A stretch of DNA of 64,000 nucleotides from Myxococcales bacterium (GTDB taxonomy: Bacteria > Myxococcota_A > Polyangia > Haliangiales > Haliangiaceae): assembly GCA_016708565.1 (NCBI GenBank), contig JADJFN010000001.1, positions 732,863-796,862 on the forward strand, read 5' to 3'. Below are positions 30,526-54,225 of the stretch, piece after piece (the stretch's first letter is position 1; every line of letters begins with the position of its first letter). The notes below the pieces were generated by a model. That model was not told the origin of the DNA. It ran no database searches and worked only from the letters and a program-made list of their open reading frames with translations. The position numbers and the translations under genes were made by a program.

Positions 30526-30715
30526 GCGGCCTGGCGCTACCCGTGGCCGCCCAGGCTCACCGCCTCGATGGGATCCGGGACGTCCTGCGCGTCGTGCTCG
30601 AGCGCCAGCGCGAGCGCGTCGCCGCGCCGGTCACCGCGGGCGCGCAACCACGCCGCGTCGCGCGCGTGTCCGTCGCCGCCGTCGAGCGCGGCGGCGAGGC
30701 GGCACGGCGCGTGCT

Positions 30716-31057
30716 TCAATGGCGGCCATGAGGACCAGCATCCTGGTGATGGTGACGCTGCTGGCCAACGGCGCGTGCGCGTTGTACGGCGAGGATGGCG
30801 GCGACGATGGTGACAGCGGCAGCGGGCAGCTGTGCGGTGGCCTCACCGGCCGCGGCTGTCCGAGCGACGAGTTCTGCGACTACCCGGTCGAGCACGCGTG
30901 CGGCATCGCGGACGGCGGCGGCGCGTGTCGCACGCGCCCATCCGCCTGCCCCGAGAACTACGCCCCGGTGATCGGCAGCGACGGGCAACGCTACGACAAC
31001 GCGTGCTTCGCCCACGCGGCGGGCGCCGACGACTGCGAGCCCGCGCCGGCGCCTTGA
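30716..31057 (+). CDS. small secreted Cys-rich protein with an atypical Kazal-like domain
   Basis: Signal MAAMRTSILVMVTLLANGACA and 8 Cys; C-terminal CPENYAPVIGSDGQRYDNACFAHAAGADDC resembles the Kazal pattern C..Y.PVCGSDG.TY.N.C...C but has Ile where the third Cys would be. Confidence 0.55.
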   Translation, partial: SMAAMRTSILVMVTLLANGACALYGEDGGDDGDSGSGQLCGGLTGRGCPSDEFCDYPVEHACGIADGGGACRTRPSACPENYAPVIGSDGQRYDNACFAHAAGADDCEPAPAP

Positions 31058-35367: not shown

Positions 35368-37278
35368 TCACGCCGACGCGCTGGCGGGGCCGTACTTGCG
35401 CGCGAAGAACGGGGCCATCGCCGCGAGGAGGCCGGGGACGTCGGCGTGCTCGGGCACCGAGATGCGGCAGATCTGGACGTTGTCCTTCTTCTGCGCGTTC
35501 TTGACCGCGGCCGACAGCGCGCCCTGGGTCGACTCCTCGGGGTTGATGACGTAGAAGACGTCGGGCTTGCCGCCACCGGTCGACTGGCCGTAGCTCACGC
35601 GGCTCTTCACCAGCGCGGGGGCCGCCGCCAGCAGGTGCGCGACGAACTCGTCGACCAGGTCGGCGTAGGTCGTCGGCGCGGGCGGCAGATAGAACGACAG
35701 CAGGCCGCTGGCGAGGCCGTCGGTGATCTGCTGTTCGGTGATCGCGTACAGCGTGATCGCGTGGCCGTAGGCGCCCAGCGCCGCGCGCAGGCCGTCGGCG
35801 AGCCGGGTGGTGTGCGCCGCGATGGTCGCCATGCGCGGGGCCAGATCGGCCAGCCCGGTCGCCAGCTCGGCGAGCTGCTCGGGGCGGGCGAACGAGTCGG
35901 CGTCGCGGCCCAGCTCTCGCGCGCGCTCGACGATGCGGCCGGCGAGCGCGTCGCTCGCGCACGCGACCACGCCGAGGGTCGCCTTGCCCTTGGTGAAGTA
36001 CTTGGACCCGCTCTTCACCAGGATGAACGGCCAGTCCTGCGCGAAGGCCTTGGCGAAGATGGGGTAGAGGGGCGCGAGGGTCGTGTCGACGAGCACCGGC
36101 ACGCGGTGGCCGGTGCGATCGGCGTAGGCCCGCAGCCCGGCGAGCAGCGCGGGGAAGTCGTGGGCCTGCAGCTCGGGGTTGGTCGGCGTCTCGAGGAACA
36201 CCACCGCCGGCCCGGTCTCGGAGGCGAGGCGGGCGACGATGCGGTCGACGATCGTCGCCGGTCGCCCGGCGGCGTCGGTGCCGAGCACCGGGAGCGGGGC
36301 CGGGCGGACGTTGGTCTGCGCGGGGAGCAGGTCGCCGATCAGCTGGCCGGTACCGCCGTAGCCGTTCTGCGCGTAGAACAGCGTCACCGGCGCGGGCCCG
36401 AGCACCTCCGCGGCGCCCGTGAACAGCGCGGCCTCGGCGGCCAGCCCGGTGCAGAAGTACAGGCTGTCGGTGACCTGCGGGAACAGGCTGGTCAGGCGCG
36501 CCTGGCAGGTCGCCGCGTCGGAGGTCGCGAGCACCGGCGGCGTCAGGCCGGCCGCGCGCGCCAGCTCGTGCTGGGCGTCGGCGGCGAGCAGCGCGGCGAC
36601 GGTGCGCTTGCGGATGACCTGGATCGGCCCCGGCGCGATGCGCGCGGTGTCGCGCAGGAGCAGCACCCCGCCCTGGTGCACCGGGTAGCAGATCGCGTCG
36701 GCGGCGCTGGCTTGGACGTCGCCCTCGAACCGGCCGCTGGCGACCCACACCGTCAGCACGTCCGGACGCGCGGGCGGGAGCTCGTGGGCGTGCTCGTGCA
36801 GCGTCACCCCGGCGGCGACCAGGTCGGCCTGCTTGCGCGCCGACAGCGGCAGCGCGCCCTCGGCGAACACCCGCACCGGCAGCGCTCGCCGCGGCGCCTC
36901 GATGACCGCGAGCCACGGCTTGGTCACCGACGCGAACGAGAGGCACCGCGCGGCGTTGGTGCGGACCTGCTCGGCGAGCTCGAACACCGTCGACAGTGGC
37001 TGCCCGAGCCGGGCGTAGTCGAACGGCAGGCCGCACGCCACGAGCCGCTCGCGGATGGCGGCGGCGCTGGTGATGTCCTCGGCGGCGATGCCGGCGACCG
37101 CGCGCTCGAAGCGCTCGGCGAACTTGTCGTCCGAGTCGAAGCGGAACAGATCGTACGTGGTCGCGCGGTGGTCCCAGTCATCGGGGAGCGCGCCCGGCTG
37201 ACTCAGGAGGCGCGGGAGCACCTGCGCGAGCTGTGCGGAGAAGCTGGAGCCCAGGACGATTCGGCCGTCGGCGGTCAT
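35368..37278 (-). CDS. PLP-dependent enzyme, putative (Cys/Met-metabolism family-like core with an extra ~200-aa N-terminal region)
   Basis: 636 aa; the segment LVKSGSKYFTKGKATLGVV resembles the PLP-lysine region of trans-sulfuration enzymes; the assignment is tentative. Confidence 0.5.
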   Translation of the reverse strand: MTADGRIVLGSSFSAQLAQVLPRLLSQPGALPDDWDHRATTYDLFRFDSDDKFAERFERAVAGIAAEDITSAAAIRERLVACGLPFDYARLGQPLSTVFELAEQVRTNAARCLSFASVTKPWLAVIEAPRRALPVRVFAEGALPLSARKQADLVAAGVTLHEHAHELPPARPDVLTVWVASGRFEGDVQASAADAICYPVHQGGVLLLRDTARIAPGPIQVIRKRTVAALLAADAQHELARAAGLTPPVLATSDAATCQARLTSLFPQVTDSLYFCTGLAAEAALFTGAAEVLGPAPVTLFYAQNGYGGTGQLIGDLLPAQTNVRPAPLPVLGTDAAGRPATIVDRIVARLASETGPAVVFLETPTNPELQAHDFPALLAGLRAYADRTGHRVPVLVDTTLAPLYPIFAKAFAQDWPFILVKSGSKYFTKGKATLGVVACASDALAGRIVERARELGRDADSFARPEQLAELATGLADLAPRMATIAAHTTRLADGLRAALGAYGHAITLYAITEQQITDGLASGLLSFYLPPAPTTYADLVDEFVAHLLAAAPALVKSRVSYGQSTGGGKPDVFYVINPEESTQGALSAAVKNAQKKDNVQICRISVPEHADVPGLLAAMAPFFARKYGPASASA

Positions 37279-37430
37279 GCGCGCGCAGCATATCCCGCGG
37301 GCCGACGTCCGCGAGGGCCCGTGCGCCGCGGGCTGGTCGGCCGCGCAACCCCGCGTGCCGGCGCGCGGTGACGCGGACGTCTCGAAGCGCGCGCGTCGAT
37401 CTCGCCGGCGGCGCCGCGCGCGACCGCACC

Positions 37431-38405
37431 GTGATAGATGGGCCCGTGGTCGAGCGCACTTGGTCGCACACCGTCCTGGCGGTGATCCTCGCGGTGGTGG
37501 CGTGTGGTGGCGAGCGCGCGCGGGATCCCGCGCCTCGGGCGGCGGCGCCTGCGACGCGCCCGGCGCCGGCGGTGGGCGAGGCCGCCGCCGAGCCGCCGCC
37601 GCGCTCGCCGCTCGCCCCGGCGTTCGCGCTGCTGCCGACGGCGATCGTCGCGGCCGAGCCGACGCCGATCGCGTGGCTCAACGATCAGCTCGTCGCCGCG
37701 GTGGCGCCGGTGTTCGACGCGGCGTGCTGGCGCGCGCTCGCCGCCACGATCGACGGCTACTACGCGATCGACCTGGTCGGCGCGCCCGAGCGGGTGGTGT
37801 TCCATCCGCACCTGATCCACGGCCAGGTCGAGCTCGCCGCGCTGCGGGCGTGTCGCGTGCCGGCGGCGCGGCGCCGCGAGGCGACGCACGCCCGCGTCCT
37901 CGTGGCGTCCGACGGCGGCTTCTTCCCGGTCGTGTTCGCCGACCTGGGCCACGGCTGGTTCCTGATGATCGACGGCGAGATCGCCCCGATCCTCGCCGCG
38001 GCCGAGGCGCTGGCCGCCGCCGCCCCCGCGACCGCCAACCCGCTGGCCGACCTGGTCGGCCGGTCCGCGACGCCCGGCTGGCGCGCGCTGGCGGGCGACG
38101 TGACCCGCGCGTCGCTCGGCGTCCCCGCGCTGGGCGCGCGCGCCGAGTTCACCCCGTTCACCGGCCTCGGCCCGCCCCCCGGACCGGTGACCGTCACCGT
38201 CTTCTTCGCCAGCGCCGCCGACGCGCAGCGCGCCCTGGCGGCCGCGACCGCGTCGGGCGGCTCGATCGACCGCGAGGCGGTGGGCGACGTCGTGGCCCTG
38301 GCCGGCACGCTCGGGGAGGTCCGCGTCGACGGCGCGACCGTCGTCTACCGCGGGCCGGTCTCCGCAGCGCTGTTCGACAGCCTGGGGCTGTTCCGGGTGC
38401 CGTGA
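37431..38405 (+). CDS. lipoprotein, hypothetical
   Basis: GTG start (alternative GTG at 37446); signal plus lipobox TWSHTVLAVILAVVACGG. The overlapping 765-aa minus-strand ORF is Arg-rich noise. Confidence 0.5.
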   Translation: MIDGPVVERTWSHTVLAVILAVVACGGERARDPAPRAAAPATRPAPAVGEAAAEPPPRSPLAPAFALLPTAIVAAEPTPIAWLNDQLVAAVAPVFDAACWRALAATIDGYYAIDLVGAPERVVFHPHLIHGQVELAALRACRVPAARRREATHARVLVASDGGFFPVVFADLGHGWFLMIDGEIAPILAAAEALAAAAPATANPLADLVGRSATPGWRALAGDVTRASLGVPALGARAEFTPFTGLGPPPGPVTVTVFFASAADAQRALAAATASGGSIDREAVGDVVALAGTLGEVRVDGATVVYRGPVSAALFDSLGLFRVP

Positions 38406-38482
38406 TCGCGGCGCCGCGGAAGGGCGGCGTTGGTGACCCGCCGCGCCGCGGCCCACGCCCGGCCGACCGAGCTGGGTGATCG

Positions 38483-41437
38483 TCAGTCGTCGGCGATCGC
38501 GGTGAGCGAGCGCTCGACGCCGCGCGCGAGGCCGACCGTCACGGTGGTGCCGGCGGGCACCTGGAGCAGGTCCCAGCCGAGCTCGAGGCGCAGGCCCTTC
38601 ACGTCGTGGCCGTCGACGGTGACGATGGTGTCGCCCGCGACGAGGCCGGCCTGCGCGGCGGGCCCAGGGCTCACTTCGCTGATCGTGAGCGCGCGCGTCC
38701 GCGGATCGGCGTCGGGCGCGGGCTGCACGAACGCCCAACCGAAGTCGCCCGGCCTGCCGTCGTCGCCGCCCCGGCGCTCGACCATGGGCACGTCGCCGAC
38801 GTCGTGCACGGGGCCGCCGGTGAGCTCGACGATCCAGCGGACCAAGGGCCACCGCGCTTCGCGCTCGGCGTTCAGGCCGACGACGTAGACGAGGCCCGCG
38901 GGCGCGTTCGGCACGGTGAAGCGGCCGCCGGCGTCGCTCAGCTCGGCGCCGTCGCCCCCCGCCGCGATGGACGGCACGCCGGCGCCCGCGCCGGCGGTCG
39001 GGGTGACGGTCGCGCGGACGCCGGGCACGGGCGCGCCCGTCGCGAGGTCGACGAACCGACCGGTCACGGTGCGCTTCGCCCCGAGGACGAGCGCGACGCC
39101 GGTCCGGTCCTCGCCGGCGGCGAGCGGCACCGTCGCCTGCACGCGGCCCGCGGCGCTGTCGACGGCGACGACGAACGCGCCGGCCGGCAGGTCGCGCACG
39201 ACGAACGCGCCGCCGGTGCGGGAGAAGCGCTCGCGCCGCTCGAAGCCGGTCTGCACGTCGGCGACGGCGAGCTCGAACGTTTCGGGCGCGCCGCTGCTCG
39301 CGACCGTGACGGTGCCGGCGATCGAGCCGGTGCTCAGGATCGTGAGCGTCGTGTCGCTGCCGGTCGCGACGTGCTCGACCGCGGCCTCGCCGCCGCCGCG
39401 CCGGTACGCGCGCACCGTGTGGCGCCCCCGGCCGAGGCCGCCGACGGTGAAGCGGCCATCGGTGCGGGTGAGCACCGGCCGATCGGTGCGGCCCCACGTC
39501 CAGCGGGTCTGGCGCACGCCGGCACCCGCCGCGACCCCCGGTCCGTCCGGCTCGCGCACGGCGACGACCCACGCGTCGCCCACCGGTTCGCCGCGCGCGT
39601 CGTTCACGACCCCGGTGATCGCGCCGTCCTGCGCCTCGACGACCAGCCGCACGGTCGCGGTCTGCCCCGCGACCACCGTGACCGGCTCGCCGCGGTCGTC
39701 GCCATCGGCCGCGCCCGGGCGTTGCACGGGCTCGAACCTGCCGCGCGACACGGTCACGCGGTGCGGGCCCGGCTCGACGCCGTCGATGCGGAACGTGCCG
39801 TCATCACCGGTCGCGACCCCGCCGTCGAGCATCCGGATCTCGGTCGAGACCCGCACGCCGGCCACCGGCTGGCCCGCCGGATCGACGACGATCCCGGCGA
39901 CGGCGCCGCTCGCCGGAAAGACGATGTCGGCGGTGGAGCCGCCGCCCGGCGCGACGGTCACCGTCAGGGGCGGCGCTGCGTCGACCTGACCGTTCACGCT
40001 AGCCTCGAGCTGGTAGGTCCCGCCTCGCAGGCCGGTCAGGCGATAGACGCCGTCGTCGCCCGAGCGCGCGAACGCGCCCGGGAAGAACTCGCCCGCGTCC
40101 GTGGCCCGCGCCGACACCCACGCGTCGCCGAACGGCGCGCCGGCGGCGGTCCTGACCGTGCCGGTGATGACGGCGCCCGGCGTCACCGTGAGGATCAGGT
40201 CCGCGTGGTCGGCGCCGGCGGCGACCTCGACGGGCGGGTACTTCTGCTGCGCGGCCTGGTCGTTGCACCTGACGCGCACCTCGTAGCGCCCCGGCACGAG
40301 TGACAGGATCGCGAAGGTCCCGTCGAGCTCGATCGAATCGGTCGCGCGTGCCCGCGATGCCGCATCGGCCAGCATCACGGCGCCGCGCGGACACGGCTCG
40401 ACCTTGCCCCCGCCGCGATCGATCACCACGGTGCCGCGCACGCGGCTCGCCGGGTGTACGACGACCACGACGCCGTCCACGTGCTGGCCCAGGCCGAGCA
40501 GCACGCTCTCGCCGGCTTCGCCGCGGTAGCCGTCGCCCGACGCGACCGGCTTGTAGCGCCCGGGGACCAGCCGCGTCAGACGGAAGCGGCCCTGCGCGTC
40601 GCTGCGCGTGCTCGCCCCCGGCTCGCCGTCGTCGTCGCCGGCGACGGCGACGATCGCGCCGTCGACCGGCCGCGCGTCGCCCGCCGTGACGACCGTGCCC
40701 GACAGGCTCGACTCCGGCGTCAGCAGGATCTGCGCGCGCGCGGTCGGCGCCGACACGTCGCTGTCGCCCGGGGCGTATCCGTCTGCGTGCGCGCCGAGGT
40801 GGGCCGGACCCGGCGCGGTCCACAAGGCAAAGCGTCCCTGTTCGTCGGTGCGAGTGGTCGCGGCGACACCGACCACGGTCCCCGCCGAGATCGCCACCAG
40901 CGCGCCGACGATCGGCCCCCCGCTCACGTCCTCGACGGTGCCGCTCACCTTCACGCCGCCGGGCGGCAGCGCGAAGTCCACGCCGGTGCGCACCTCGCCT
41001 GGCGCGAGTCGAAAGCTGTCGAGCTCGCCCAGCGCGTTGAGCCACGGCCGCGCGAGGTGCCCGGCGGCGCTCGCGGCGAGCGCGTGGCGCACCGGCAGGA
41101 GGTCCTCGAGCGCGTACGCGCCGGCGGCGTCGGTCGTCGCGCACGGCGGCGCGCGCCACTCGTCGGAGGCGAGGCCATCGGTCGCGAAGCGCGAGCACAC
41201 CTGCGCGCCGGCGATCGGTCCGCCGCCCGCCGTGCGTACCGTGCCGCGGACCGCGGCGCGCGGCTGCGTGCGTGGATCGTTCGGCGCGGTCTTCCCGGCC
41301 GCGCCGCGCGCGCGACCTCCCGCGACCTCGGCGCCGGCCGCGCCGCGCGGCTTCGACGAGCGAGCGCGATCGCGCCGCCACCACAGCGCGACCAGGACGA
41401 CGAGCAGGGCGACCACGATCGCGACGATCCGCTTCAC
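38483..41437 (-). CDS. membrane-anchored protein with about five carboxypeptidase-regulatory-like (transthyretin-fold) domains and a C-terminal PDZ domain
   Basis: N-terminal TM helix MKRIVAIVVALLVVLVALWW; repeats GTVEDVSGGPIVGALVAI, GTVVTAGDARPVDGAIVAV and GIVVDPAGQPVAGVRVS; PDZ segment LTISEVSPGPAAQAGLVAGDTIVTVDGHDV. Confidence 0.8.
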   Translation of the reverse strand: MKRIVAIVVALLVVLVALWWRRDRARSSKPRGAAGAEVAGGRARGAAGKTAPNDPRTQPRAAVRGTVRTAGGGPIAGAQVCSRFATDGLASDEWRAPPCATTDAAGAYALEDLLPVRHALAASAAGHLARPWLNALGELDSFRLAPGEVRTGVDFALPPGGVKVSGTVEDVSGGPIVGALVAISAGTVVGVAATTRTDEQGRFALWTAPGPAHLGAHADGYAPGDSDVSAPTARAQILLTPESSLSGTVVTAGDARPVDGAIVAVAGDDDGEPGASTRSDAQGRFRLTRLVPGRYKPVASGDGYRGEAGESVLLGLGQHVDGVVVVVHPASRVRGTVVIDRGGGKVEPCPRGAVMLADAASRARATDSIELDGTFAILSLVPGRYEVRVRCNDQAAQQKYPPVEVAAGADHADLILTVTPGAVITGTVRTAAGAPFGDAWVSARATDAGEFFPGAFARSGDDGVYRLTGLRGGTYQLEASVNGQVDAAPPLTVTVAPGGGSTADIVFPASGAVAGIVVDPAGQPVAGVRVSTEIRMLDGGVATGDDGTFRIDGVEPGPHRVTVSRGRFEPVQRPGAADGDDRGEPVTVVAGQTATVRLVVEAQDGAITGVVNDARGEPVGDAWVVAVREPDGPGVAAGAGVRQTRWTWGRTDRPVLTRTDGRFTVGGLGRGRHTVRAYRRGGGEAAVEHVATGSDTTLTILSTGSIAGTVTVASSGAPETFELAVADVQTGFERRERFSRTGGAFVVRDLPAGAFVVAVDSAAGRVQATVPLAAGEDRTGVALVLGAKRTVTGRFVDLATGAPVPGVRATVTPTAGAGAGVPSIAAGGDGAELSDAGGRFTVPNAPAGLVYVVGLNAEREARWPLVRWIVELTGGPVHDVGDVPMVERRGGDDGRPGDFGWAFVQPAPDADPRTRALTISEVSPGPAAQAGLVAGDTIVTVDGHDVKGLRLELGWDLLQVPAGTTVTVGLARGVERSLTAIADD

Positions 41438-41600
41438 CGGTCGACCCTAGCGCGGCTCGCGCGCGCGCCGGATCGCGAACGCCGCGACGCAGGGGGCGAC
41501 CGTGGATCGGTCACATCAGGCTCCCTTCCTACCGAGTGACAGCCGATCGGCGCGGCCGCGCCAGCGCGTCGCCGCGCCGGTCACCGCGCGCGCAACCACG

Positions 41601-41667
<67 letters not shown>

Positions 41668-42009
41668 GTGCGGGGGCGCGTTCGGGCGGCCTACCGCTCC
41701 GTCCAGCGGGCCCGCGGGGGCGGCGGAGCACCAGACCCCTACGCGACCATCACGCTCAATGGGACAGCGCTGGGGATGACGGCGGCCGCGCAGGACATCT
41801 TCAACCCGATCTGGAACATGGCGACGAGCCCGACGAACATCCCCGCGGGCAGCACACTCTTTGTGGATGCCTACGACGAAGACATCGCGGAGGACGACCC
41901 CATCATGCGTTGCCAGTTCGCTCCCCTCACGGCCGACTTGCTGCACGTCGGCGAAGGGGTCTGCTCCGGTGCGATCGGTACGCTGACCGTCCGCTTCTCG
42001 ACCAACTGA
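41668..42009 (+). CDS. N-terminally truncated C2-domain-like ORF immediately after the poly-G tract
   Basis: ...PDPYATITLNG...DIFNPIWNMA...LFVDAYDEDIAEDDPIMRCQFAP matches the C2 pattern DPYVK..L / NP.WNE / V.D.D....D..IG. In-frame GTG at 41668. A/T-ending codons are unusually frequent for this window. Confidence 0.4.
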   Translation: MRGRVRAAYRSVQRARGGGGAPDPYATITLNGTALGMTAAAQDIFNPIWNMATSPTNIPAGSTLFVDAYDEDIAEDDPIMRCQFAPLTADLLHVGEGVCSGAIGTLTVRFSTN

Positions 42010-42095: not shown

Positions 42096-45000
42096 TCAGC
42101 CCGGCGCCAGCAACGCGAACGCCTCGTAGAGGACGGCGGGCAGCGGCGCGTCGAGGTGCCAGGTGATGGCGATCGGTCGATCGCCGTCGTGGCTGCGGTA
42201 GGTCGCGCCGCCCAGGAAGACGTAGGGCTCGTCCTTCGCGGTCTGCACGAACAGGAAGAAGCGCCAGCCATTGGTCGCGCTGTCGAGGTACCGCCGCCCG
42301 GCGGCGCTGGCCACCCGGGTGCGACCTTGGGTCTCCCACAGGAACAGGTCGCGGCTGATCGCGCGATCGCGGTAGCTGGTGGTCGGTGAGAAGTTCCCGC
42401 TCGACTTGTCGAGCGTCACGAACAGGAGCTCACGGCGCGACGCGTCGAGCTTGAGGATGCCGGCCTGCGGCACGCTGATCTTGTCGCCGCTGGCGCGATC
42501 GCCGACCGCGGTGACGATCTCGTAGCGGCTGTAGCGCCGGTGCAGCGCCAGCGGCCAGTCGGCCTCGGGGTAGACGTCGCCCGCGAGCCCGGGCTTGTCC
42601 TCGAGCACGGCGGTCAGCTCGCGCAGCTCGGCCCGGACCGCCGGGCGCGCTCGGTACCAGTCGGCCACCTCCTCGGCCGCGCGCAGGACGCCGCGCTTCT
42701 GGAGCTGCGCGTCGAGCATGGCCAGGCGGCGCGCGTCGAGCGGCCCCGGGGGTGGCGCGCCGTCGTCGGTGAGCGCGCGGTAGCGGCGGAGCCGCGTCGG
42801 TTCGTCGACGTGGCACAGCCGGCCGAGCCCGCGGCTCGCGAGGTCGGCATCGACATCGGGGGCCGCGAGGCCGGCGGCGACCTGGACGTCGCGCCACCCG
42901 GCGTCGCCGGTGTACACGTCCTCGAGGGGGCGCCCGGTCTCGCGCAGGAACCGCGTCAGCGTGACCGGCGCGCCGTCCGGCTCGGCGGTCGCCCGCTCGT
43001 GCAGCTCGTGCAGCTCCCGCAGCTCGCGGCCGAGGCGCGCCACGCCTCGGCCCAGCGTGCGGCGCAGCGAGTCGAGCACCTGGTCGCGGGCCACTCGATC
43101 GAGCTCGAGCGCGCAGCCGCTGGGCAGGTGCGGGAAGCCGTGCTCGATGGCCTCGCGTAGCCGCGGCCGCGGCAGGCCGGTCAGCGTCGCCAGGATCGCG
43201 TCGTACCGGTACTCCTCGCGGTGCTGGCCGATGAAGTCGAGCACCAGGCACGCGGTCTTGCCCGGGAACAAGCGCAGGCCGCGGCCGAGCTGCTGCTGGA
43301 ACAAGGTCGCGCTGGCGGTCGGGCGGAGGAGCAACAGCACGTCGACGAACGGCAGGTCGACGCCCTCGTTGTACAGGTCGCACGTGAAGACCAGGTTCAC
43401 CTCGCGGTCACGGAGCCGGCGCCGCACGTCGTCGCGCAGCGCCGCGGGGCTGCCGCCATGGACCGCCACCGCCGGCACGCCGAGCGCGGTGGCCTGCGCG
43501 GCCATGTACTCGGCGTGCTCGACGCTCACGCAGAAGCCCAGCCCCCGCACCGCGCGCAGGTCGGCGACGCGGCGCGCGAGCTGCGCCACCACCAGGCGCG
43601 CCCGCGCCTCGTTGCCGGTGTAGAGCCCGGCCAGCGCCGCGGCGTCGTAGCCAGTGCGGGTCCAGCGCACGCGCCGCAGGTCGGTGCCGTCGGTCAGGCC
43701 GTAGTACTCGAACGGCGCGAGGAGCTGCTGCGCCAGCGCGTCGGGCAAGCGCAGCTCGGCGGCGATGCGATCGTCGAAGTCCGGCAGCAGCGACTGCCCG
43801 TCGCTGCGCTCGGGGGTGGCGGTGAGGCCGAGCAGCAGCTGCGGGCGCAGCGCCCGCAGGACCGCCTGGTACGAGGGCGCGGGCAGGTGATGGCACTCGT
43901 CGATCACCACGTAAGCGAAGTGCTCGGCGCCGAGCTGGTCGAGCAGGCGCCCCGCGCTCTGGATGGTCGCGAACACGTGGTCGCCGCGCGCGATCGTCGC
44001 GCCGCCGGCGATCAGCTCGCCGAACCCGCCATCGAGCAGGACCTCGCGGAACGTGTCGCGCGCCTGCTCGACGATCTCCACCCGGTGCGCCAGGTACAGG
44101 AGCCGCGGCGGCGCCGCGGGCGCCTGACGCGCGTAGTCGAACGCGGCGATGACGGTCTTGCCCGTACCGGTGGCGGCGACCACGAGGTTGCGCGTGTGGC
44201 CGCGCTCGACGCGCTCGGCGCGCAAGCGGTCGAGGATGATCTGCTGATACGGGTACGGCTGTGGCGCCAGGCGGCGCGGCGCGGGGCGCGGCGCGGCGTC
44301 GCGTTGGAGCGCGCCGGCCAGCTGGTCTCGGTGGGTCGGGTCCCGCGGATCGTAGCGCTGGAATTCCGGATCCTGCCAGAGGGTCTCGAAGGTGCCGGCG
44401 AAGTGGTCGATCACGTGCGGCAGGTCGCCGCTGGACACCTTCACCACCCACTCGTGGCCGGCGCCGAGCGCCGTCGCGGTGAGGTTGGCCGAACCGACGT
44501 ACGCCGTGGACAGGCCGTTGGCGCGGTGGAACAACCACGCCTTCGCGTGTAGCCGCGTCCGGCGCGTGTCGAACGACACCTTCACTTCGGCGCCGGGCAG
44601 CTCGGCCAGGCGGTGCACCGCCTCGACCTCGGTGGTGCCGGTGAAGGTCGTGGTCAGCACGCGCAGGCGGGTGCCGCTCGACGCCAGCGCCAGCTGTCCG
44701 AGCGCGTCGGCCAGCACGCGCACCCCGCCGATGGTGATGAACGCGACGATGACGTCGACCCGATCGGCGCTGGCGATCTCGCGGCGCAGCTCGGAGGCCA
44801 GCCCCGGCTCGAGCGGGCCGCGGGTGAACAGGGTCGAGGCGGTGAACGTCGAGTCGGGACGCAGCGGCCTCGGCCCCGTCCCCACGGCCCACAGCTGGCG
44901 CGGCGGTGGCAGCAGCCGCTGCGCGCGGATGGGCCCGGCGTCGCCATCGTCGAACGCCAGGGTCGTCGCGATCTCCGCCAGCACGCGCTCGACCAGCGCC

Positions 45001-45191
45001 GAGCTCGCCGCGACGCGCGCGTGCTCGTCGAGCGCCGCCAGCGCCCGTCGCACCTCGGTGGCGACCAGCCGCGCGACCTCGCCCGGCAGCTGATCGGGCC
45101 GCAGGTCGCGCAGCTCGGCCACGGACTCGCCGAGCGCCTCGGCGAGCGCCTCCGTCAGCGGATGCTCGTACAGCCCTGGCGCCAGCGGCAT
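42096..45191 (-). CDS. PLD-family nuclease + SF2 (ResIII/DEAD-like) helicase + DUF3427 fusion protein; putative restriction/defense-like enzyme
   Basis: HKD motif RLHAKAWLFHRANGLSTAYVGSANLT; Walker A VVAATGTGKT; DEAH-box VVIDECHHL; motif III LGLTATPER; C-terminal ~250 aa DUF3427-like (ISRDLFLWETQGRT...FVFLGGATY). Start at MPLAPGLYEHPL. Confidence 0.85.
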   Translation of the reverse strand: MPLAPGLYEHPLTEALAEALGESVAELRDLRPDQLPGEVARLVATEVRRALAALDEHARVAASSALVERVLAEIATTLAFDDGDAGPIRAQRLLPPPRQLWAVGTGPRPLRPDSTFTASTLFTRGPLEPGLASELRREIASADRVDVIVAFITIGGVRVLADALGQLALASSGTRLRVLTTTFTGTTEVEAVHRLAELPGAEVKVSFDTRRTRLHAKAWLFHRANGLSTAYVGSANLTATALGAGHEWVVKVSSGDLPHVIDHFAGTFETLWQDPEFQRYDPRDPTHRDQLAGALQRDAAPRPAPRRLAPQPYPYQQIILDRLRAERVERGHTRNLVVAATGTGKTVIAAFDYARQAPAAPPRLLYLAHRVEIVEQARDTFREVLLDGGFGELIAGGATIARGDHVFATIQSAGRLLDQLGAEHFAYVVIDECHHLPAPSYQAVLRALRPQLLLGLTATPERSDGQSLLPDFDDRIAAELRLPDALAQQLLAPFEYYGLTDGTDLRRVRWTRTGYDAAALAGLYTGNEARARLVVAQLARRVADLRAVRGLGFCVSVEHAEYMAAQATALGVPAVAVHGGSPAALRDDVRRRLRDREVNLVFTCDLYNEGVDLPFVDVLLLLRPTASATLFQQQLGRGLRLFPGKTACLVLDFIGQHREEYRYDAILATLTGLPRPRLREAIEHGFPHLPSGCALELDRVARDQVLDSLRRTLGRGVARLGRELRELHELHERATAEPDGAPVTLTRFLRETGRPLEDVYTGDAGWRDVQVAAGLAAPDVDADLASRGLGRLCHVDEPTRLRRYRALTDDGAPPPGPLDARRLAMLDAQLQKRGVLRAAEEVADWYRARPAVRAELRELTAVLEDKPGLAGDVYPEADWPLALHRRYSRYEIVTAVGDRASGDKISVPQAGILKLDASRRELLFVTLDKSSGNFSPTTSYRDRAISRDLFLWETQGRTRVASAAGRRYLDSATNGWRFFLFVQTAKDEPYVFLGGATYRSHDGDRPIAITWHLDAPLPAVLYEAFALLAPG

Positions 45192-45550
45192 CGCCCGATG
45201 ATAGGAGCTCGCGGCGCTGCCGTCAGGGGTCGGCGCGCCTGTTGGCGCAGCGTCTGCGGTGATGGACGCCGGCGGCGACAGGGCGCGCAGCCCTGGTTCC
45301 ACCCGGTCGGCCGCGGATTGTCGAAGCTCGCCGAGATGGTCGACGCGCTCAACCCCTGCGCCTTCACCGCCGGCGCCTTGGCGACGTAGTCGAAGATGTG
45401 CCCGGCGTCGTCGGACGCGCAGCCGTTCTTCTCGGTCCACGACCGGGTCCCGGCGTCGGTGCGTTGCCCGCCGCTCAGGTCGCGCTTGTCGACCGTCCGC
45501 GGCCGGTCCGGTCGGCCGTCGCCACCGCCGGCAGCAACGTGAGCGTGACC

Positions 45551-45576
45551 GGTCCGCCGAGTCGCAGCCACCCGGA
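45551..45576 (+). repeat. right copy of the direct repeat flanking the nuclease-helicase gene
   Basis: Same 17-nt core AGTCGCAGCCACCCGGA, about 3.5 kb from the left copy. Confidence 0.55.
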
Positions 45577-45601
45577 GGGGGCGCCGCCTACTCGCCCCTG
45601 G

Positions 45602-45928
45602 TCAGGCCGCGCCGCTGCGACGGTAGTCGAGGAGCGCAACCTCCAGCGCCGCGGCCAGCTCCTCGTCATCGCACTCCGAGATCGCGCTCTGGGAGAAGGT
45701 GGCGACGAGGTCGGCGGTGCCAGCGCGAAACACCGGGCCGTCCTCACGACGAAACAGGCACACGTCGAAGCGATGGTTGCCCGTGTCATCCACCAGCTGG
45801 AAGCGTTCGAGGAGGGGGCCGAACTCGGCGGGCTGTGCCCTCAGCTGGGCGAGGCGTGGGCCCAGCTGCGCTGCCAGCACGTCGTCGACCTCGCTCAGCG
45901 GCGGAAAGGGAACGGGGCGAAGTCGCAC
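45602..45928 (-). CDS. small hypothetical protein (~108 aa)
   Basis: GTG start; the C-terminal part of ORF 45602..46489 (...FQLVDDTGNHRFDVCLFRREDGPVFRAGTADLVATF...) is protein-like while the rest is Arg-rich noise. Confidence 0.35.
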   Translation of the reverse strand: MRLRPVPFPPLSEVDDVLAAQLGPRLAQLRAQPAEFGPLLERFQLVDDTGNHRFDVCLFRREDGPVFRAGTADLVATFSQSAISECDDEELAAALEVALLDYRRSGAA

Positions 45929-46098
45929 GGGGCGAGGATAGCCTCGCGGTCGAACGGGCGGTCCGATCGGGGCACCGGACGCGGCGGATCCGTCGGCGGC
46001 TGTTCCGGTGGCCGTGTTCCGGTGGGCCGCGACACGAGCCCCGTCGCCGCGCCCAGCGCCGGGCAGATCGAATCGGCCGGCGAGGCGTCGACACGGAC

Positions 46099-46530
46099 AT
46101 GCGGTGTTCGACGGTCCGGTTGCGTGCGCTCGGCCTCGCGCTCCTGGTCCTCGGCTGCCGGGCCACCAGCCCACCGTCGCGCGCGGGCCCCGCACCGGCG
46201 AGCGAGGCGGCCGTGGCGGTAGCCGGGGCACCGGCCGGGACGCCGGTCGATCCATGGCAGGCGTGCGCGGTCGACGACGACTGTGCCGTGGTGGAGATCG
46301 ACCGCGGCGCGTGCGACCTCTGCGCGAACACGTACGCGGTCGCGCGCGGGCGAGCCGACGAGGCGCGCGCGCGCGCCGCGCTGACAGAGCCGGTCGAGGT
46401 CTGCACGGATCGCGATCACTCGTGCCCGGCGGCGACCGCCGCCTGCGTCGACGGCGCCTGCGCGCTGCAGGTCCCCGCCGACCCGCCACGCGCGGCGCGC
46501 CGCTGGTTCAACCCGCTGCCGGCCCGCTGA
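46099..46530 (+). CDS. small Cys-rich lipoprotein, hypothetical
   Basis: MRCSTVRLRALGLALLVLGC lipobox; 10 Cys in about 143 aa. Confidence 0.5.
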   Translation: MRCSTVRLRALGLALLVLGCRATSPPSRAGPAPASEAAVAVAGAPAGTPVDPWQACAVDDDCAVVEIDRGACDLCANTYAVARGRADEARARAALTEPVEVCTDRDHSCPAATAACVDGACALQVPADPPRAARRWFNPLPAR

Positions 46531-46571
46531 CCTTCGGCTGGTCGCGGCCGCCGCTCGTGTACGATGGAGAG

Positions 46572-48407
46572 ATGCGTCCTCGCCGCGGCTCGACACGATC
46601 AGGCGCTGGCGCGCTCGCGGCCATGGCGGCCGCGACCGCGGTGGTGGCGTGCAGCGGCGGGGCGCCGAACACGCCGGACGGGGCTCCGGACACGGCGGCC
46701 GACGCGGTCGCGGGCAGCTGCGGCGACGGGGTGGTCGACCCGGGCGAGGCGTGCGACGACGGCCGCAACGACGCCCTGGGCGGTGGCTGCCTGCCGGGGT
46801 GCCAGGCGAGCGACGACAGCGACCAGGTGTTCGCCCGCCCGCTGGTCGAGGTGGCGCTGACCTTGCCGGCGTCCGAGTGGGAGCTGCTGCGCCACGAGCG
46901 CAAGCCCCGCCACGTCATCTTCGGCGGCGCTGACTGCCGCAACGTCAGCTTGCCGAGCCCGTACCAGTGGCACGCGGCCGAGGTCACGATCGACGGCGTC
47001 GCGCTCGGCGCGGTCGGCCTGCGCAAGAAGGGGCACATCGGGTCGCAGACCGACCTGCGGCCGGCTCTCAAGCTCGACTTCGATCGCGTCTCGCCGGGCG
47101 GCCGCTACCACGGCCTCGAGGGGGTGGCGCTCAACAACGACCGGAGCGACCCCTCGCATGCGCGTGCCTGCGTCAGCTACCAGGTGTTCCGCGCTGCCGG
47201 CGTCCCGGCGCCGCGCTGCACGCTGGCCCACGTGACGGTCAACGGCGAGGATCAGGGCGTGTACGGCCTGGTCGAGGAGATCGACGCGCACTTCCTGGCC
47301 CGGCAGTTCGCGCAACCAGGCGGCAACCTGTACGAGGGCACCGCCAACGACTTCCGGCCCGACGCCATCGGCGGGTTCGATCGCGAGACCAACCAAGGCG
47401 ACCCGTCGCGGGCCGACCTCGACGCCGTGCTGGCGGCGCTGGACGCGGCCGACGCCGAGGTCGAGGCGGCGCTGGCGGCGGTGATCGATCTCGATCAGTT
47501 CTACCGGTTCTGGGCGACCGAGATCGTGGTGTGGCACCGCGACGGCTACAGCGGCAACGCCAACAACTTCTACCTGTACGCCGACCCGGCCCGGGGCGGC
47601 CGGATGGTGTTCCTGCCGTGGGGCACCGACGCTGCCCTCTCGGTCGACAACCGACCCGAGGTGCCCGACTCGGTGCTGGCGTTCTCGGCGCTCAGCCGGC
47701 GCCTGATCCTGCTCGCCAGCGGACGCGCTCGGCTGAACGCCGAGGTCGACGCCGTGCTGACCGAGGCGTGGCGCCCGGCCGAGCTGATGGCGGACGTCGA
47801 TCGCATCGGCCAGGTCGCCGATCCGGTGCTGCTGCCGGCCCGCGCCGCCGAGCGCGCGAGCGTGGCCGCGCAGATCAAGGCGATGATCCTCGGTCGCGCC
47901 GACGCCATCACCGCCGCCCGCGCCGCGGGCGATGCGTGGAGCCTGCCGCTGCGTACCCTGCCGTGTCGCGTCGAGGCCGAGGCCATCACGGGCACAGTCA
48001 CCACCAGCTGGGACACCCTCGGGCAGACCACCTACGCCACCGGCGCGCTCACGCTGACGGTGGCCGGGCAGCCGGTCGTCGCCGTGCGGTCGGGCGCCCG
48101 GGCCGGCCTGGCCGGCGTGGACGGCCGGATCCTGGCCACCCTCGACAGCGCGACCCGGCGCTACGCCATCACCCTCAACTTCCCCGACCCCGAGTGGTTC
48201 GATCGCTTCGACGTCGTCGGCCCGCACGACATCGCCAGCCCGCCGTTGACGATCACGGTGATCGAGTCCGACCTGACCGTGACCCCCGCGGCCGTGCTGC
48301 GCCGGCTCGAGCTCGGCGGCGGGACCTGGACCTTCTCGGCCGCCAGCCGCATGGCAGGCGCGCCGATCGTCGCCAGCTTCACCAGCACGCTGTACCTCCC
48401 GCTGTGA
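46572..48407 (+). CDS. CotH kinase-family lipoprotein with an N-terminal Cys-rich module
   Basis: Signal plus lipobox AAMAAATAVVACSGG; GDGVVDPGEACDDG Cys-rich repeat; CotH-like core (VSYQVFRAAGVPAPRCTLAHVTVNGEDQGVYGLVEEID...NLYEG...NNFYLY). Confidence 0.75.
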   Translation: MRPRRGSTRSGAGALAAMAAATAVVACSGGAPNTPDGAPDTAADAVAGSCGDGVVDPGEACDDGRNDALGGGCLPGCQASDDSDQVFARPLVEVALTLPASEWELLRHERKPRHVIFGGADCRNVSLPSPYQWHAAEVTIDGVALGAVGLRKKGHIGSQTDLRPALKLDFDRVSPGGRYHGLEGVALNNDRSDPSHARACVSYQVFRAAGVPAPRCTLAHVTVNGEDQGVYGLVEEIDAHFLARQFAQPGGNLYEGTANDFRPDAIGGFDRETNQGDPSRADLDAVLAALDAADAEVEAALAAVIDLDQFYRFWATEIVVWHRDGYSGNANNFYLYADPARGGRMVFLPWGTDAALSVDNRPEVPDSVLAFSALSRRLILLASGRARLNAEVDAVLTEAWRPAELMADVDRIGQVADPVLLPARAAERASVAAQIKAMILGRADAITAARAAGDAWSLPLRTLPCRVEAEAITGTVTTSWDTLGQTTYATGALTLTVAGQPVVAVRSGARAGLAGVDGRILATLDSATRRYAITLNFPDPEWFDRFDVVGPHDIASPPLTITVIESDLTVTPAAVLRRLELGGGTWTFSAASRMAGAPIVASFTSTLYLPL

Positions 48408-48467
48408 TCTCCCGTGCGATGCAGACCGTTCGAACGAGCGGCGCGACGGGCAGTGGGGACGCGACGA

Positions 48468-50750
48468 TCATTGCAGGATGCCGCCGTCGTTGCGCGCGAC
48501 GCCGTAGTAGCCACCCCAGACGACCATCCACGCGCCCGTCCAGACCGCCGCGTGTTCAGCGCGGGCCGGTCCGCCGGCGAGAATCGGGATCCAGGCGCTC
48601 GTCAGCGGGGCGTAGCGACCGCCGTCGTCCGGGATGTCCCGGCCGCCCCAGACGATCATCTCCGTCCCGGTCCAGACCCCGGTGTGTTCCTCTCGGGCCA
48701 CTGGGCCCCCGCTCAGAATCGGGTTCCACTGCGCCGTCGACGGGCGGAAGCGGCCCCCATCGTTCAGCTTGACGCCGGTGCTCACTCCACCCCACACGAG
48801 CATCTCGGTCCCGGTCCACACCGCCGTATGACTATGACGAGCTGACGGGCCGGCGGCAGGCAGTGGGGTCCACTGCCCGGTCGCGGGATCGAAGCGAGCG
48901 CCGTCGTTGCGGTCCGCGCCGTCATGCCCGCCCCAGACGATCATCTCGGTCCCGGTCCACACCGCCGCGTGATTGACCCGCGCCGAAGGACCTCCACTCG
49001 AGATCAGGGTCCACTGCCCCGTCGCGGGGTCGTAGCGGCCCCCGTCGTCGTGGTTGCCCCCCGCCCCATAGCCGCCCCAGACGATCATCTCGGTGCCGGT
49101 CCACACGGCCGTGTGCCCGCTGCGCACCGACGGGCCGCCCGCAGGGATGAGGGTCCATTGGCCGGTCGCGGGATTGTAGCGCCCCCCGTTGTTGAGCTCG
49201 GCACCCCCGCCCCAGCCGCCCCAGACGATCATCTCGGTGCCGGTCCACACGGCCGTGTGCCCGTAGCGCGCCGAGGGGCCGCCGGCAGGAATCGGAATCC
49301 AGCGGCTGCAGTGACCGGCGTTGCAACCGATGGCACAGGTCTCGTCGGTGTGTGGATAGCTGCACGTTCCACCGGCGCAGCTGCCTGGGGTGGTCGACGT
49401 CCGCAGCGTGAACACGTTCACGCAGATCGGCGGCGGCGGCTGCGTACAACCCGTCGGCGCGCACGCCCCGGCAAACGCGGCCGTGACCGTCGTCGCCGTC
49501 GCCAGCGTGACGACGCAATCGCCGGTACCGGTGCAACCGCCGCCGCTCCAGCCGCCGAAGGCATCAGCGCCGGTCGGACTGGCCCGCAACGTGATGCTCG
49601 TGCCGCCCGGAAAGGGCCGACTGCACGCCGCGCCGCAGTCGATTCCCGCCGGTATCGACGTCACCGTGCCCGCTCCCGTCCCAACCTTGACCACCGTCAG
49701 GACGGGCGCCGTCATGCACGCGTTGGCGCTGCAGATCTGGTCGGCCCCGCACGCGACGGCGGGCCCCCACTCGGCGCAGGCGTCGGTGTCGAAATCGCCA
49801 CACAGCTGCTCGGCCCCTGTCCCCGCGCAGCGCGTTGCACCGCGCGTGCATTCGTCGGTGCACGCGCCGCCGAACGCGGCGGTCACCGTCGCCGCCGCCG
49901 ACATCGTCACAGCGCAGGTCCCGGTGCCGCTGCAGCCACCGCCGCTCCAGCCGTCGAACGTCGCGCCGGCCCCTGGCGTCGCGATCAGCTGCACGCTGGT
50001 CCCGGCCGGGTACGTCGCCGTGCAGTCTGCCCCGCAGCTGATGCCAGGCGGCGTCGACGTAACGAGCCCTCCCCCAGTGCCGGTCGTCACCACCGTCAAG
50101 GCATACGCCGCCGTGCACGCGCTCGCCGCACAGAGCTCGCCTGGGGGGCACGCCTCCGCCGCCCCCCACTCAAGGCACGGATCCGTGTCGTGATTCCCGC
50201 ACGTCCGCACCGCCTCGGCGCCTTCGCACACCGAGGCACCGGGCATGCAGTCGTCCGCACACGACGAGGCGCACGCGCCGCCGACGCAGAACGGCGCAGC
50301 GGCGGGGCAGGCCATCGCCATGCCCCACGCCGGGCACCCATCGGTCACGACGCACGTCTCGACGGCCTGGTCGGTGCACCGCGTCGCCCCCGGCTCGCAG
50401 CTCGCCGGACAATCCGTGCGCACCAGCGTCACCCGCGCGACCACCTCCTCACCGCGCACCGGGGTCACCTGCGTCCGGCCGTCCGCCACCGGCACGCCGA
50501 GCTGGAGCCCCGCCACGGTCAAGGCGTGCGCGTCCCCAGCCCAGGCGTCCGGCACCTGCAGCATCAACTCGGGACCAACCGCCCGCGTCACCGGGGCTGC
50601 GCCGTCGAGCGTCACGACGAGCGCGTCCACGTTCACGCCCGCCGCGATGGTGACCTCGAGCCGTATCGAGGTTGGGGCGGAACTACATGCCGCCGCCATC
50701 AGGCACAGCCACGGCAGGACGGTCGTTCGCAAACTCGCTCGCGGTCGCAT
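48468..50750 (-). CDS. lipoprotein with Cys-rich modules, two divergent InlB-B-type repeat domains and a six-bladed Kelch beta-propeller
   Basis: MRPRASLRTTVLPWLCLMAAAC lipobox; two TVVTTGTGGG...FDGWSGGGC...AAF domains; six GHTAVWTGTEMIVWGG Kelch repeats. Confidence 0.8.
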   Translation of the reverse strand: MRPRASLRTTVLPWLCLMAAACSSAPTSIRLEVTIAAGVNVDALVVTLDGAAPVTRAVGPELMLQVPDAWAGDAHALTVAGLQLGVPVADGRTQVTPVRGEEVVARVTLVRTDCPASCEPGATRCTDQAVETCVVTDGCPAWGMAMACPAAAPFCVGGACASSCADDCMPGASVCEGAEAVRTCGNHDTDPCLEWGAAEACPPGELCAASACTAAYALTVVTTGTGGGLVTSTPPGISCGADCTATYPAGTSVQLIATPGAGATFDGWSGGGCSGTGTCAVTMSAAATVTAAFGGACTDECTRGATRCAGTGAEQLCGDFDTDACAEWGPAVACGADQICSANACMTAPVLTVVKVGTGAGTVTSIPAGIDCGAACSRPFPGGTSITLRASPTGADAFGGWSGGGCTGTGDCVVTLATATTVTAAFAGACAPTGCTQPPPPICVNVFTLRTSTTPGSCAGGTCSYPHTDETCAIGCNAGHCSRWIPIPAGGPSARYGHTAVWTGTEMIVWGGWGGGAELNNGGRYNPATGQWTLIPAGGPSVRSGHTAVWTGTEMIVWGGYGAGGNHDDGGRYDPATGQWTLISSGGPSARVNHAAVWTGTEMIVWGGHDGADRNDGARFDPATGQWTPLPAAGPSARHSHTAVWTGTEMLVWGGVSTGVKLNDGGRFRPSTAQWNPILSGGPVAREEHTGVWTGTEMIVWGGRDIPDDGGRYAPLTSAWIPILAGGPARAEHAAVWTGAWMVVWGGYYGVARNDGGILQ
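48480..49320 (-). repeat. about six tandem ~141-nt Kelch-encoding repeats
   Basis: Recurring ...ccccagacgatcatctcggt.ccggtccacac.gccgtgtg... units. Confidence 0.55.
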
Positions 50751-51120
50751 GGCGCGGGAGGTTGGCAGCGGCCGGCCACGCGGGGAATGACGCCGCGCTT
50801 TCACCGACGTGTGCCGTCGCGCACATCGCGTCGTCCCGCCGAGATCTTCGACGTCGTGAATCACCGCCGTGGCGTGAGGTGCGCGAGTGCCTTGCGGATG
50901 GCCGTGCGGACCTCGCGGTCGGGCTCGAGCGCTCGCCGCCGCTTGAGCGCGGCGCGACTCGGCGCGGGGCCGAGGTCGATCATCGCGACGACCGTGGCGC
51001 ACCTGACGCGCTGGTCGGCGTGGTCGAGCAGCGCCTCCAGGGTGGCGCGGGCCGCGGCGCCGCCGCGGGCGCCGAGGGCCATCGCGGCGGCCTGGACCGT
51101 CGGCGCGTCGTTCTTGGGGC

Positions 51121-51158
51121 CCGGCGATCCGATCGGCGCCCGGCGATCCGATCGGCTG
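51121..51158 (+). repeat. tandem duplication of ccggcgatccgatcggcgc (x2), a member of the GATCGGATCG repeat family
   Basis: Seen directly in the sequence. Confidence 0.7.
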
Positions 51159-51174
51159 CGACTCGTCTCGCAGG

Positions 51175-51861
51175 GTGGCGGGCACTCGGTCGCCGACGGG
51201 CGGTGGCTTACCGATCGGGTGTGGGCCGTCGATCGAGGTCCGCCTCAGCCTGTGCGCGTCGGTCGCCGACCACGAGCTGGCGGTCGACCTGGCGACGGCG
51301 TTGGCGGAGCAAGCCGAACCGCTGATCGCCTGGGAGGACGACGCGGGGCCGATCTCGCCGGCGGCGCTCCAGGCGCGACGTGCGGCCTGGGTCGCCGAAC
51401 AGGCCGCGTGGGCGCCCGCGATCGCGGCGTCGATGGTCGATGCCGAGGGGCAGACCTCGCTGATGGCCGGCCCGCGCCGCGCGTTCGCGCTCGGCCCGCG
51501 GTTCCTGGCGGCGCTGCGCGCCAGCGGCGCGCCGCTCGAGGACGCGCTGCTGGCGGCGATGGTGACGCTGCAAGGCCTCGACGAGTACTACCCCGCGATG
51601 GCGCTCGGCCTCAGCGACGGCGCGACCACGACCACGCACGCGGTCTGGGGGCCGCGCAGCGCGTACTTGTTCCACCGCGTCGACACGCTGGTGCTGCGCG
51701 ACGACGACGAGCGGATCGTGATCCCGTGGGCGTGCGGCCCCGAGGTCGCCGGCGACGGCTGGTGCTGGCGCGACGAGGACCACGCGACGGTCGAACGCAT
51801 GGACGCCGATGGCTGGCGCGCTCGGCTGGCGCGCGCGCGCCGGGTGGCGCTGCCCGCGTGA
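51175..51861 (+). CDS. hypothetical protein
   Basis: 228-aa ORF whose C-terminal half is non-repetitive (…LQGLDEYYPAMALGLSDGATTTTHAVWGPRSAYLFHRVDTLV…); the start is uncertain. Confidence 0.35.
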   Translation: MAGTRSPTGGGLPIGCGPSIEVRLSLCASVADHELAVDLATALAEQAEPLIAWEDDAGPISPAALQARRAAWVAEQAAWAPAIAASMVDAEGQTSLMAGPRRAFALGPRFLAALRASGAPLEDALLAAMVTLQGLDEYYPAMALGLSDGATTTTHAVWGPRSAYLFHRVDTLVLRDDDERIVIPWACGPEVAGDGWCWRDEDHATVERMDADGWRARLARARRVALPA

Positions 51862-51879
51862 GCCGCGCGAGGCGCGTGG

Positions 51880-52239
51880 CTACCGGAACGCCAGGTCGAG
51901 CCCGGCGAACATGCGGATGTCATCAGCGGCTGAGCGTGCGTGCCCGCGGACGTGCCCCGAGGCATCGGTGAAGCCCGCGCGGATGATGTTCTCGTCGCCG
52001 GGGCTCACCTTGCCAAACAGCCTCGCCAGGTGGCCGAACCCGAGGATGGCGTTGCCGCGGACGTACTCGTCGCGGTGGCCGCTGAGCGCCACGCACATGC
52101 GATGCACAACCTCGTAGTCCGCTTCGTTGAGCGCGGCGGCGACGATGCCGGTCTGCAGGTACGCGACGTCGTCACGCGCGATGGCCGCCCAGAGCGCCTG
52201 CGGCCCGCCGTAGGGCGGGTCGTGGTAGGCGTCGGTCAT
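51880..52239 (-). CDS. small hypothetical protein (119 aa)
   Basis: MTDAYHDPPYGGPQALWAAIARDDVAYLQTGIVAAALNE...; only the C-terminal part of the 398-aa table ORF is protein-like. Confidence 0.45.
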   Translation of the reverse strand: MTDAYHDPPYGGPQALWAAIARDDVAYLQTGIVAAALNEADYEVVHRMCVALSGHRDEYVRGNAILGFGHLARLFGKVSPGDENIIRAGFTDASGHVRGHARSAADDIRMFAGLDLAFR

Positions 52240-52295
52240 GCGGCGTAGCCTAGCCTGGGGCCGCGGTGGCAGCCGATCGGATCGCCGGCTCCGCG

Positions 52296-53418: not shown

Positions 53419-54225
<807 letters not shown>

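Follow-up and report, generated by a model that had tools for sequence, protein, structure and literature searches.

A C2-domain gene fragment next to a poly-G run in a Haliangiaceae metagenome-assembled genome, and its intact counterpart, a predicted lipoprotein gene, in related assemblies

The truncated reading frame and its neighbours

The DNA analysed here (the window) is a 64-kb stretch with a GC content of 74.6%. It belongs to the metagenome-assembled genome (MAG) JADJFN000000000 (Bjer_18-Q3-R1-45_MAXAC.048), which was obtained from activated sludge, consists of 40 contigs totalling 10,173,296 bp and is classified as Haliangiaceae g__UBA2376 (Singleton et al. 2021, PMC8012365). Two minus-strand genes frame the feature under study. 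The left one (38483-41437), which is divergent to it, encodes 984 aa and is 98.4% identical to its 983-aa orthologue on contig L002 (GCA_943370995.1, a 149-kb NCBI contig), where Pfam identified CarboxypepD_reg repeats and a PDZ domain. The right one (42096-45191, 1031 aa, 99.4% identical to L002) is convergent and combines PLD-nuclease (PLDc_2), DEAD/ResIII helicase, Helicase_C and DUF3427 domains, as is typical of nuclease-helicases of the defence type. The interval between them contains the divergent intergenic region upstream of the 984-aa gene (41438-41602), a run of 64 consecutive G (41603-41666), 54 nt of corrupted sequence (41667-41720, plus strand) and a plus-strand coding segment that ends in a stop codon (41721-42009).

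Directly after the G run, positions 41668-42006 translate into 113 aa, with the stop codon at 42007-42009. The product reads VRGRVRAAYRSVQRARGGGGAPDPYATITLNG...FNPIWNMA...LFVDAYDEDIAEDDPIMRC...STN, and the translation of 41668-42009 has also been given as VRGRV...APDPYATITLNG...STN. A scan of this frame found no ATG between the G run and the PDPY motif; a GTG is located at 41668, and the earliest in-frame ATGs are those at 41776 and 41818. A mechanically called open reading frame, 41272-42009, crosses the entire run and reads it as poly-glycine. The first-pass annotation of this DNA had described a domain that lacks its first beta-strands and a frame that runs back into the poly-G without a start codon, and both descriptions were correct for these positions.

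Searched against the Pfam C2 profile (PF00168), the fragment scored 23.8 bits (E=5.5e-5, profile positions 18-87 of 104), a borderline value that lies above the cut-off of 22 bits. The segment 41721-42009 corresponds to codons 123-217 and the TGA stop of an intact 217-codon gene found in other assemblies, and is 100% identical to L002 6366-6654. It carries C2 strands 2-8, the aspartates D127, D174, D176 and D181, and the conserved cysteine pair C186/C203 (numbering of the intact product, P0151), while C2 strand 1 is absent from the window copy.

In the public (PGAP) annotation of the MAG, the 77-aa 'hypothetical protein' MBK7071314.1 (IPH44_03330) is identical to the window reading frame 41776-42006. 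It represents the longest stretch of the truncated C2 gene that can be read from an ATG, and its annotation is a by-product of the assembly error described below.

The intact locus and the origin of the poly-G run

A word-index protein search with the 113-aa fragment returned a single match, P0001 (103 aa, on contig L001), and the intact allele surfaced only in a profile search. That allele, P0151, has 217 aa. Its match to the window covers 98% of the query, corresponding to the C-terminal part common to both, and shows 100% identity. It is present on six independent contigs of the same species (L002-L007), each time with the same two neighbour genes. The true order of the locus is therefore taken from these contigs: the 984-aa CarboxypepD_reg/PDZ gene on the minus strand, about 585 bp of lower-GC intergenic sequence, the 217-aa gene on the plus strand, and the PLD-helicase-DUF3427 gene on the minus strand.

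Comparison by blastn located the boundaries of the damage. Window 36021-41603 corresponds to L002 1-5581 at 98.4% identity, and within this match the left intergenic flank (41438-41602) is 100% identical to L002 5416-5581. Agreement resumes at 41721, from which point the window corresponds to L002 6366-9876 up to position 45231 (99.4%) and matches L003-L007 at 99.4-100%. Where the window switches to G, the native sequence simply runs on in both L001 and L002. The missing stretch in L002 (5582-6365) amounts to 784 nt, and its counterpart in the window to 117 nt, namely the 64 G, one of which is common to the native flank, and the 54 nt that follow. This native stretch covers most of the lower-GC intergenic region and extends through the first 365 bases of the C2 gene.

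The 54 nt themselves are a collapsed copy of native gene positions ~272-365 (codons ~91-122). In a global alignment they fall in order onto L002 6272-6365, the last ~94 of the replaced bases, with two substitutions to G (T>G and C>G), approximately 43 nt deleted and a frameshift; the short deletions within the copy are mostly of A or T. The first 32 nt could also be matched to the native sequence by blastn, at 90.6% identity (E=4e-5). A C-x-x-AFGR motif that is conserved amongst the relatives is visible right after the G run in a frame different from that of APDPY, and a W-D that is invariant in the family alignment is lost from the window copy; both observations are explained by the 54 nt being a collapsed, frameshifted copy of the native sequence. 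Compared with its relatives in the Kofleriaceae and Haliangiales, the window copy thus lacks codons 1-90, and its codons ~91-122 have been corrupted by the assembly error.

Twelve related contigs that cover the position of the G run or the adjacent native sequence were compared, and the run was missing from all 12. At the same syntenic position, these assemblies hold coherent sequence of a different kind: six contigs carry the intact 784 nt, six more a clean deletion allele, and L013 the remnant open reading frame of that allele. The deletion allele is shared by L001 and L008-L012 and removes precisely 819 bp (native L002 5642-6460, approximately window 41604-41815), so that the C2 gene loses its promoter region and codons 1-153 and a remnant open reading frame of 63 aa is left; L013 has the same remnant. 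In L001 the stop codon has additionally changed from TGA to GGA, and the single word-index match, P0001, is the remnant of this allele. The whole locus is spanned by L002 and L005, and its deletion form by L001 and L008-L011. Because a precise deletion circulates in the same species, the C2 gene would be an accessory one, and the deletion allele is a ready-made comparison for studying the role of the gene. Intact and deleted alleles were both found amongst sequencing runs with adjacent accessions (SRR11674048/54 versus SRR11674051).

A second tract of the same kind (53751-53842) lies approximately 12 kb from the first, within an unrelated gene. Here, 46 nt that drift from A, C and T towards G are followed by 11 and 34 G (53797-53842), and together they replace 68 native nt of the independent metagenome contig L025, which matches both flanks at 97.8% and 99.1%. 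The minus-strand frame that crosses this tract acquires a false poly-proline stretch. In both tracts the G stands on the same strand of the contig, and a degraded copy of the native sequence adjoins each of them, collapsed at the first and graded at the second. Such a pair of same-strand tracts, each flanked by native sequence that decays into G, is characteristic of a failed consensus and not of mutation.

Given these observations, we consider it highly probable that a consensus error in this assembly destroyed the 5' part of an ordinary gene of 217 codons, which is itself intact, and that the fragment is the 3' part left undamaged. The G run would accordingly be an assembly or consensus artefact and not genomic, a status that was deduced from comparison with other assemblies rather than from raw reads. 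The first-pass annotation had left the choice between a genuine truncation or insertion and an assembly gap hiding the 5' part; with 784 native bases present in six other assemblies, the second alternative is the right one, and a genuine truncation or insertion in this genome is not supported.

A genuine pseudogene, in which the truncation, the poly-G (as an insertion or an expansion), the frameshift and the internal deletions are all real in this strain, was judged very unlikely. It draws some credit from the dispensability of the gene in nature, as seen in the 819-bp deletion of L001 and L008-L012 and the remnant in L013, and from the position of the locus next to a strain-variable segment of 9.1 kb. 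However, the breakpoints in the window (native 5581 and ~6272/6366) are unlike those of the natural deletion, and the native sequence beside the tract has not simply been removed but degraded base by base to G with scattered short deletions, mostly of A or T. The second tract behaves alike inside an unrelated gene 12 kb away, both tracts are G on one contig strand, and not even a short G run was seen at this position in any related contig. A homopolymer of 64 nt would, moreover, be highly unstable in vivo. A chimeric join, in which the poly-G glues two unrelated regions together and the left-hand neighbours are false, is barely credible: poly-G runs can form false bridges in assembly graphs, but both flanks are syntenic with single contigs of independent assemblies, in the full form as well as in the deletion form, and the join was rejected on these grounds.

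As for the technical cause, the MAGs of Singleton et al. (PMC8012365) were assembled from Nanopore reads with CANU; polishing went through Racon, then Medaka (two rounds) and finally Racon again, this time with HiSeq X reads. Local failures of this type could plausibly originate in such a pipeline, and the G run could have arisen through basecalling, through the Medaka/Racon consensus or because intact and deletion alleles were mixed in the sample. A 'dark cycle' of two-colour Illumina sequencing, in which the lack of signal is called as G, is unsupported as the origin, since the polishing reads came from the HiSeq X, an instrument with four-colour chemistry. The tracts resemble the homopolymer and low-complexity consensus artefacts of draft and long-read assemblies, which likewise show a single-base run, neighbouring bases drifting to that base, deletions and absence from independent assemblies; here the pattern occurs twice on the same strand. 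Poly-G runs in this MAG therefore flag wrong consensus, and open reading frames abutting them should not be read as biology, as applies to the 77-aa MBK7071314.1 and to the poly-proline frame at 53.8 kb.

To the right of the locus, window 45232-54347 (~9.1 kb) is absent from L002 and L003, in both of which the equivalent of 45231 is followed directly by sequence resembling 54348 onward (93%), and L001 tracks the window up to 46086. The segment looks like a strain-variable island that starts 40 bp upstream of the PLD-helicase-DUF3427 gene.

Architecture, fold and predicted function of the intact product

The N-terminus of P0151, MRAMGLCVFILVAAC|ASDGDD, which is absent from the window, has the appearance of a signal peptide with a lipobox when compared by eye with the consensus [LVI][ASTVI][GAS]C. 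The lipobox reads L-V-A-A-C15; A14 and C15 are invariant in close relatives, and C15 is at least 90% conserved in 41 relatives. Two four-cysteine repeats of the form CGDGxCxxxExxxxCxxDC follow at residues 25-43 and 50-68, and then a small four-cysteine, putatively disulfide-bonded hairpin (C73, C81, C87, C92). The C-terminal part, approximately residues 95-217, is a C2 beta-sandwich. No NCBIfam model matched P0151, and DUF7107 matches to the cysteine hairpin remained below threshold.

An AlphaFold2 (AF2) model of the intact protein, built on a 41-sequence alignment, reached a pLDDT of 86.5 overall and ~95 at residues 90-217, and its C-terminal part is an eight-stranded antiparallel beta-sandwich. 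The best 50 Foldseek matches listed for the PDB were all C2 domains with a probability of 1.00 and TM scores up to 0.77 (3w57), and amongst the other best matches were the C2 domains of PKC eta/epsilon, cPLA2, Itch and Munc13 (C2B). Searched against PDB sequences, the family profile recovered ferlins and synaptotagmins at E ~1e-13. Full-length P0151 scored 21.2 bits on the Pfam C2 profile, just under the cut-off of 22, and close relatives scored 33-35 bits; in an alignment of the window fragment with 21 relatives (A4), 20 of the 22 sequences matched Pfam C2. The fragment had originally been assigned to the Ca2+/lipid-binding C2 domains on the basis of a motif signature, together with proposals to search Pfam and to predict the structure. 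The Pfam match, the family profile and the fold predicted for intact P0151 agree in sustaining that assignment. The domain itself is real; the assembly defect has only altered how it appears here.

HMMER searches with the fragment produced 353 matches at E<=1e-3 in 1.84 billion representative sequences. Some of these are long canonical multi-C2 proteins, 25-34% identical to the fragment, in which Pfam recognised five to eight strong C2 copies; one such protein also has ankyrin repeats. The remaining matches are short proteins that make up a coherent set, each with a single C2 domain at the C-terminus and 37-57% identical to the fragment. Their common plan comprises, in order, a signal peptide with a lipobox cysteine, optional CGDGxC...DC repeats, the motif C.GETIC..G.C..AFGR.Y.I.V and the pattern WD..GGAPDPF...NG...T...DT..P.WN...IPAGS...D.YDEDv..dD...C..PLTA..L..G...C.G. 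All named relatives belong to Kofleriaceae, Haliangiales or Myxococcota MAGs. P0151, the intact allele of the window gene, is one of this uncharacterised set of C2 lipoproteins (others are, e.g., P0157 and P0167), whose members share 37-100% identity and have in common the lipobox, the CGDGxC...DC repeats, the C.GETIC..G.C..AFGR hairpin and the C-terminal C2 domain with its aspartates and cysteine pair. A literature search found no paper on these bacterial C2 lipoproteins.

A locus search with a close alignment (A5), which includes the N-terminal motifs absent from the window, yielded four relatives. No conserved gene neighbourhood was found amongst the relatives, which suggests that the gene acts alone, and no functional partner can be proposed. 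In one relative (L039), the C2 gene lies beside Qat/WYL/TatD-type (defence-type) genes.

The calcium-binding residues of known C2 domains can be followed into the family. An hhalign alignment to synaptotagmin-1 C2A paired D127 with D178, D174 with D230, D176 with D232 and D181 with D238. D120 falls outside this alignment, shifted by one position relative to synaptotagmin D172, and we infer that the two are equivalent with a one-residue offset. In 41 relatives D120, D127, D174 and D176 are invariant, and D181 is at least 90% conserved; these five residues would form a synaptotagmin-type aspartate cluster on two top loops. This pairing with synaptotagmin, together with the conservation in the relatives, makes it very probable that the C2 domain of P0151 binds calcium. 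The intact product is predicted to be a lipoprotein that would be exported across the inner membrane and lipidated, with a putative lipid-binding C2 domain stapled by a disulfide between C186 and C203. On these sequence features, the most likely function would be to attach, in a calcium-dependent manner, to an extracytoplasmic lipid surface.

With eukaryotic Ca2+/phospholipid-binding C2 domains, such as those of synaptotagmin-1 (C2A), ferlins, PKC epsilon/eta and cPLA2, P0151 shares the sandwich, the profile similarity (E ~1e-13) and the aligned aspartates of loops 1 and 3. Unlike these, it would be a single domain on a predicted bacterial exported lipoprotein and not part of a cytosolic protein, it is preceded by cysteine-rich repeats, and it contains the C186/C203 pair, which could form a disulfide. 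Its loop 1 is one residue longer than in eukaryotic C2 domains, and synaptotagmin C2A superposes poorly on the model (rmsd ~14 A). The strand order, the best structural matches (cPLA2, PKC epsilon/eta) and this poor superposition suggest a type II topology.

C2 domains have been described as 'typically not found in prokaryotes' (PMC12922734), which agrees with the earlier remark that the domain is rare in bacteria; yet NCBI already labels relatives of P0151 as 'C2 domain-containing protein'. A functional bacterial example is the Ca2+-sensitive C2 domain of the Synechococcus nitric oxide synthase (PMC12922734), also a calcium-responsive beta-sandwich. By its description that domain is set apart as the N-terminal regulatory module of a cytoplasmic multidomain enzyme, whereas P0151 is a stand-alone, predicted exported lipoprotein. 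The intact gene is a member of a small uncharacterised family of bacterial C2 lipoproteins. The interest of this family is modest and lies in the rarity of C2 domains amongst prokaryotes and in the retention of the calcium-binding residues. As a tentative wider reading, to which we give rather less than even weight, the Haliangiales and Kofleriaceae may possess a clade of extracytoplasmic, lipid-anchored, disulfide-stapled, calcium-binding C2 domains used for attachment to foreign or own membranes, encoded by an accessory gene of which a natural knock-out allele segregates in populations from wastewater. If true, they would join a very short list of Ca2+/lipid-binding C2 domains from bacteria, and might be the first exported ones.

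Base composition, possible gene transfer and repeated sequence at the locus

Atypical codon usage had been reported for the fragment from its many codons ending in A or T, and the counts confirm this: 13 of its 93 codons (14%) end in A or T, compared with 5.4% in one flanking gene and 4.5% in the other (Fisher p=9e-4), and none of 184 same-size windows inside those genes reaches 14%. For the full native gene the contrast is stronger (18.9% versus ~5%, p=9e-12). The GC content of the fragment, 64.2%, lies at the 0.2 percentile of 282-nt windows. The proposed comparison of GC3 and codon usage was therefore borne out for codons ending in A or T, whereas GC3 alone (0.85) is only modestly low, at the 22nd percentile of all windows.

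The full gene has a GC content of 65.6%, approximately 9 GC points under its own genome and similar to that of relatives in genomes of 67-70% GC. In those relatives, where the GC content of the gene is near that of the host, GC1 and GC2 (~0.55-0.60) are the same. Low GC1 and GC2 values common to all relatives imply that the anomaly stems in part from amino-acid composition. A myxobacterial relative of lower GC content as the donor would be compatible with the lower GC3.

Horizontal acquisition, which the first-pass annotation had suggested, is therefore only weakly supported. The form in which a eukaryotic C2 domain was recently acquired seems quite improbable. In its favour can be counted the GC deficit and the codon usage given above, the pairwise-detectable similarity to canonical multi-C2 proteins, the rarity of C2 domains in prokaryotes (PMC12922734), and the non-conserved neighbourhoods of the relatives, including that of L039 beside defence-type genes. 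However, the nearest relatives (37-88% identity) are bacterial in plan, with a lipoprotein signal, cysteine repeats and a disulfide-stapled C2 domain, identity to the multi-C2 proteins reaches only 25-34%, and the low GC1 and GC2 in all relatives reflect amino-acid composition. Composition and relatives together fit an old bacterial clade with, at most, an exchange within the Myxococcota, and nothing in them indicates a recent eukaryotic donor.

The last 46 nt of the left flank (41558-41603) begin a repeat that is also found at 30612-30700. Considered with its native continuation in L002 (5540-5792), this sequence and window 30612-30760 are a diverged duplicate at 84-91% identity. A TIGR02996-type domain had been entertained for a minus-strand open reading frame in the repeat (30537-30719) and was dropped, as NCBIfam gave no match. 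The copy at 30612-30760 spans the upstream region and first codons of a cysteine-rich lipoprotein gene at 30716, and the other copy lies upstream of the C2 gene.
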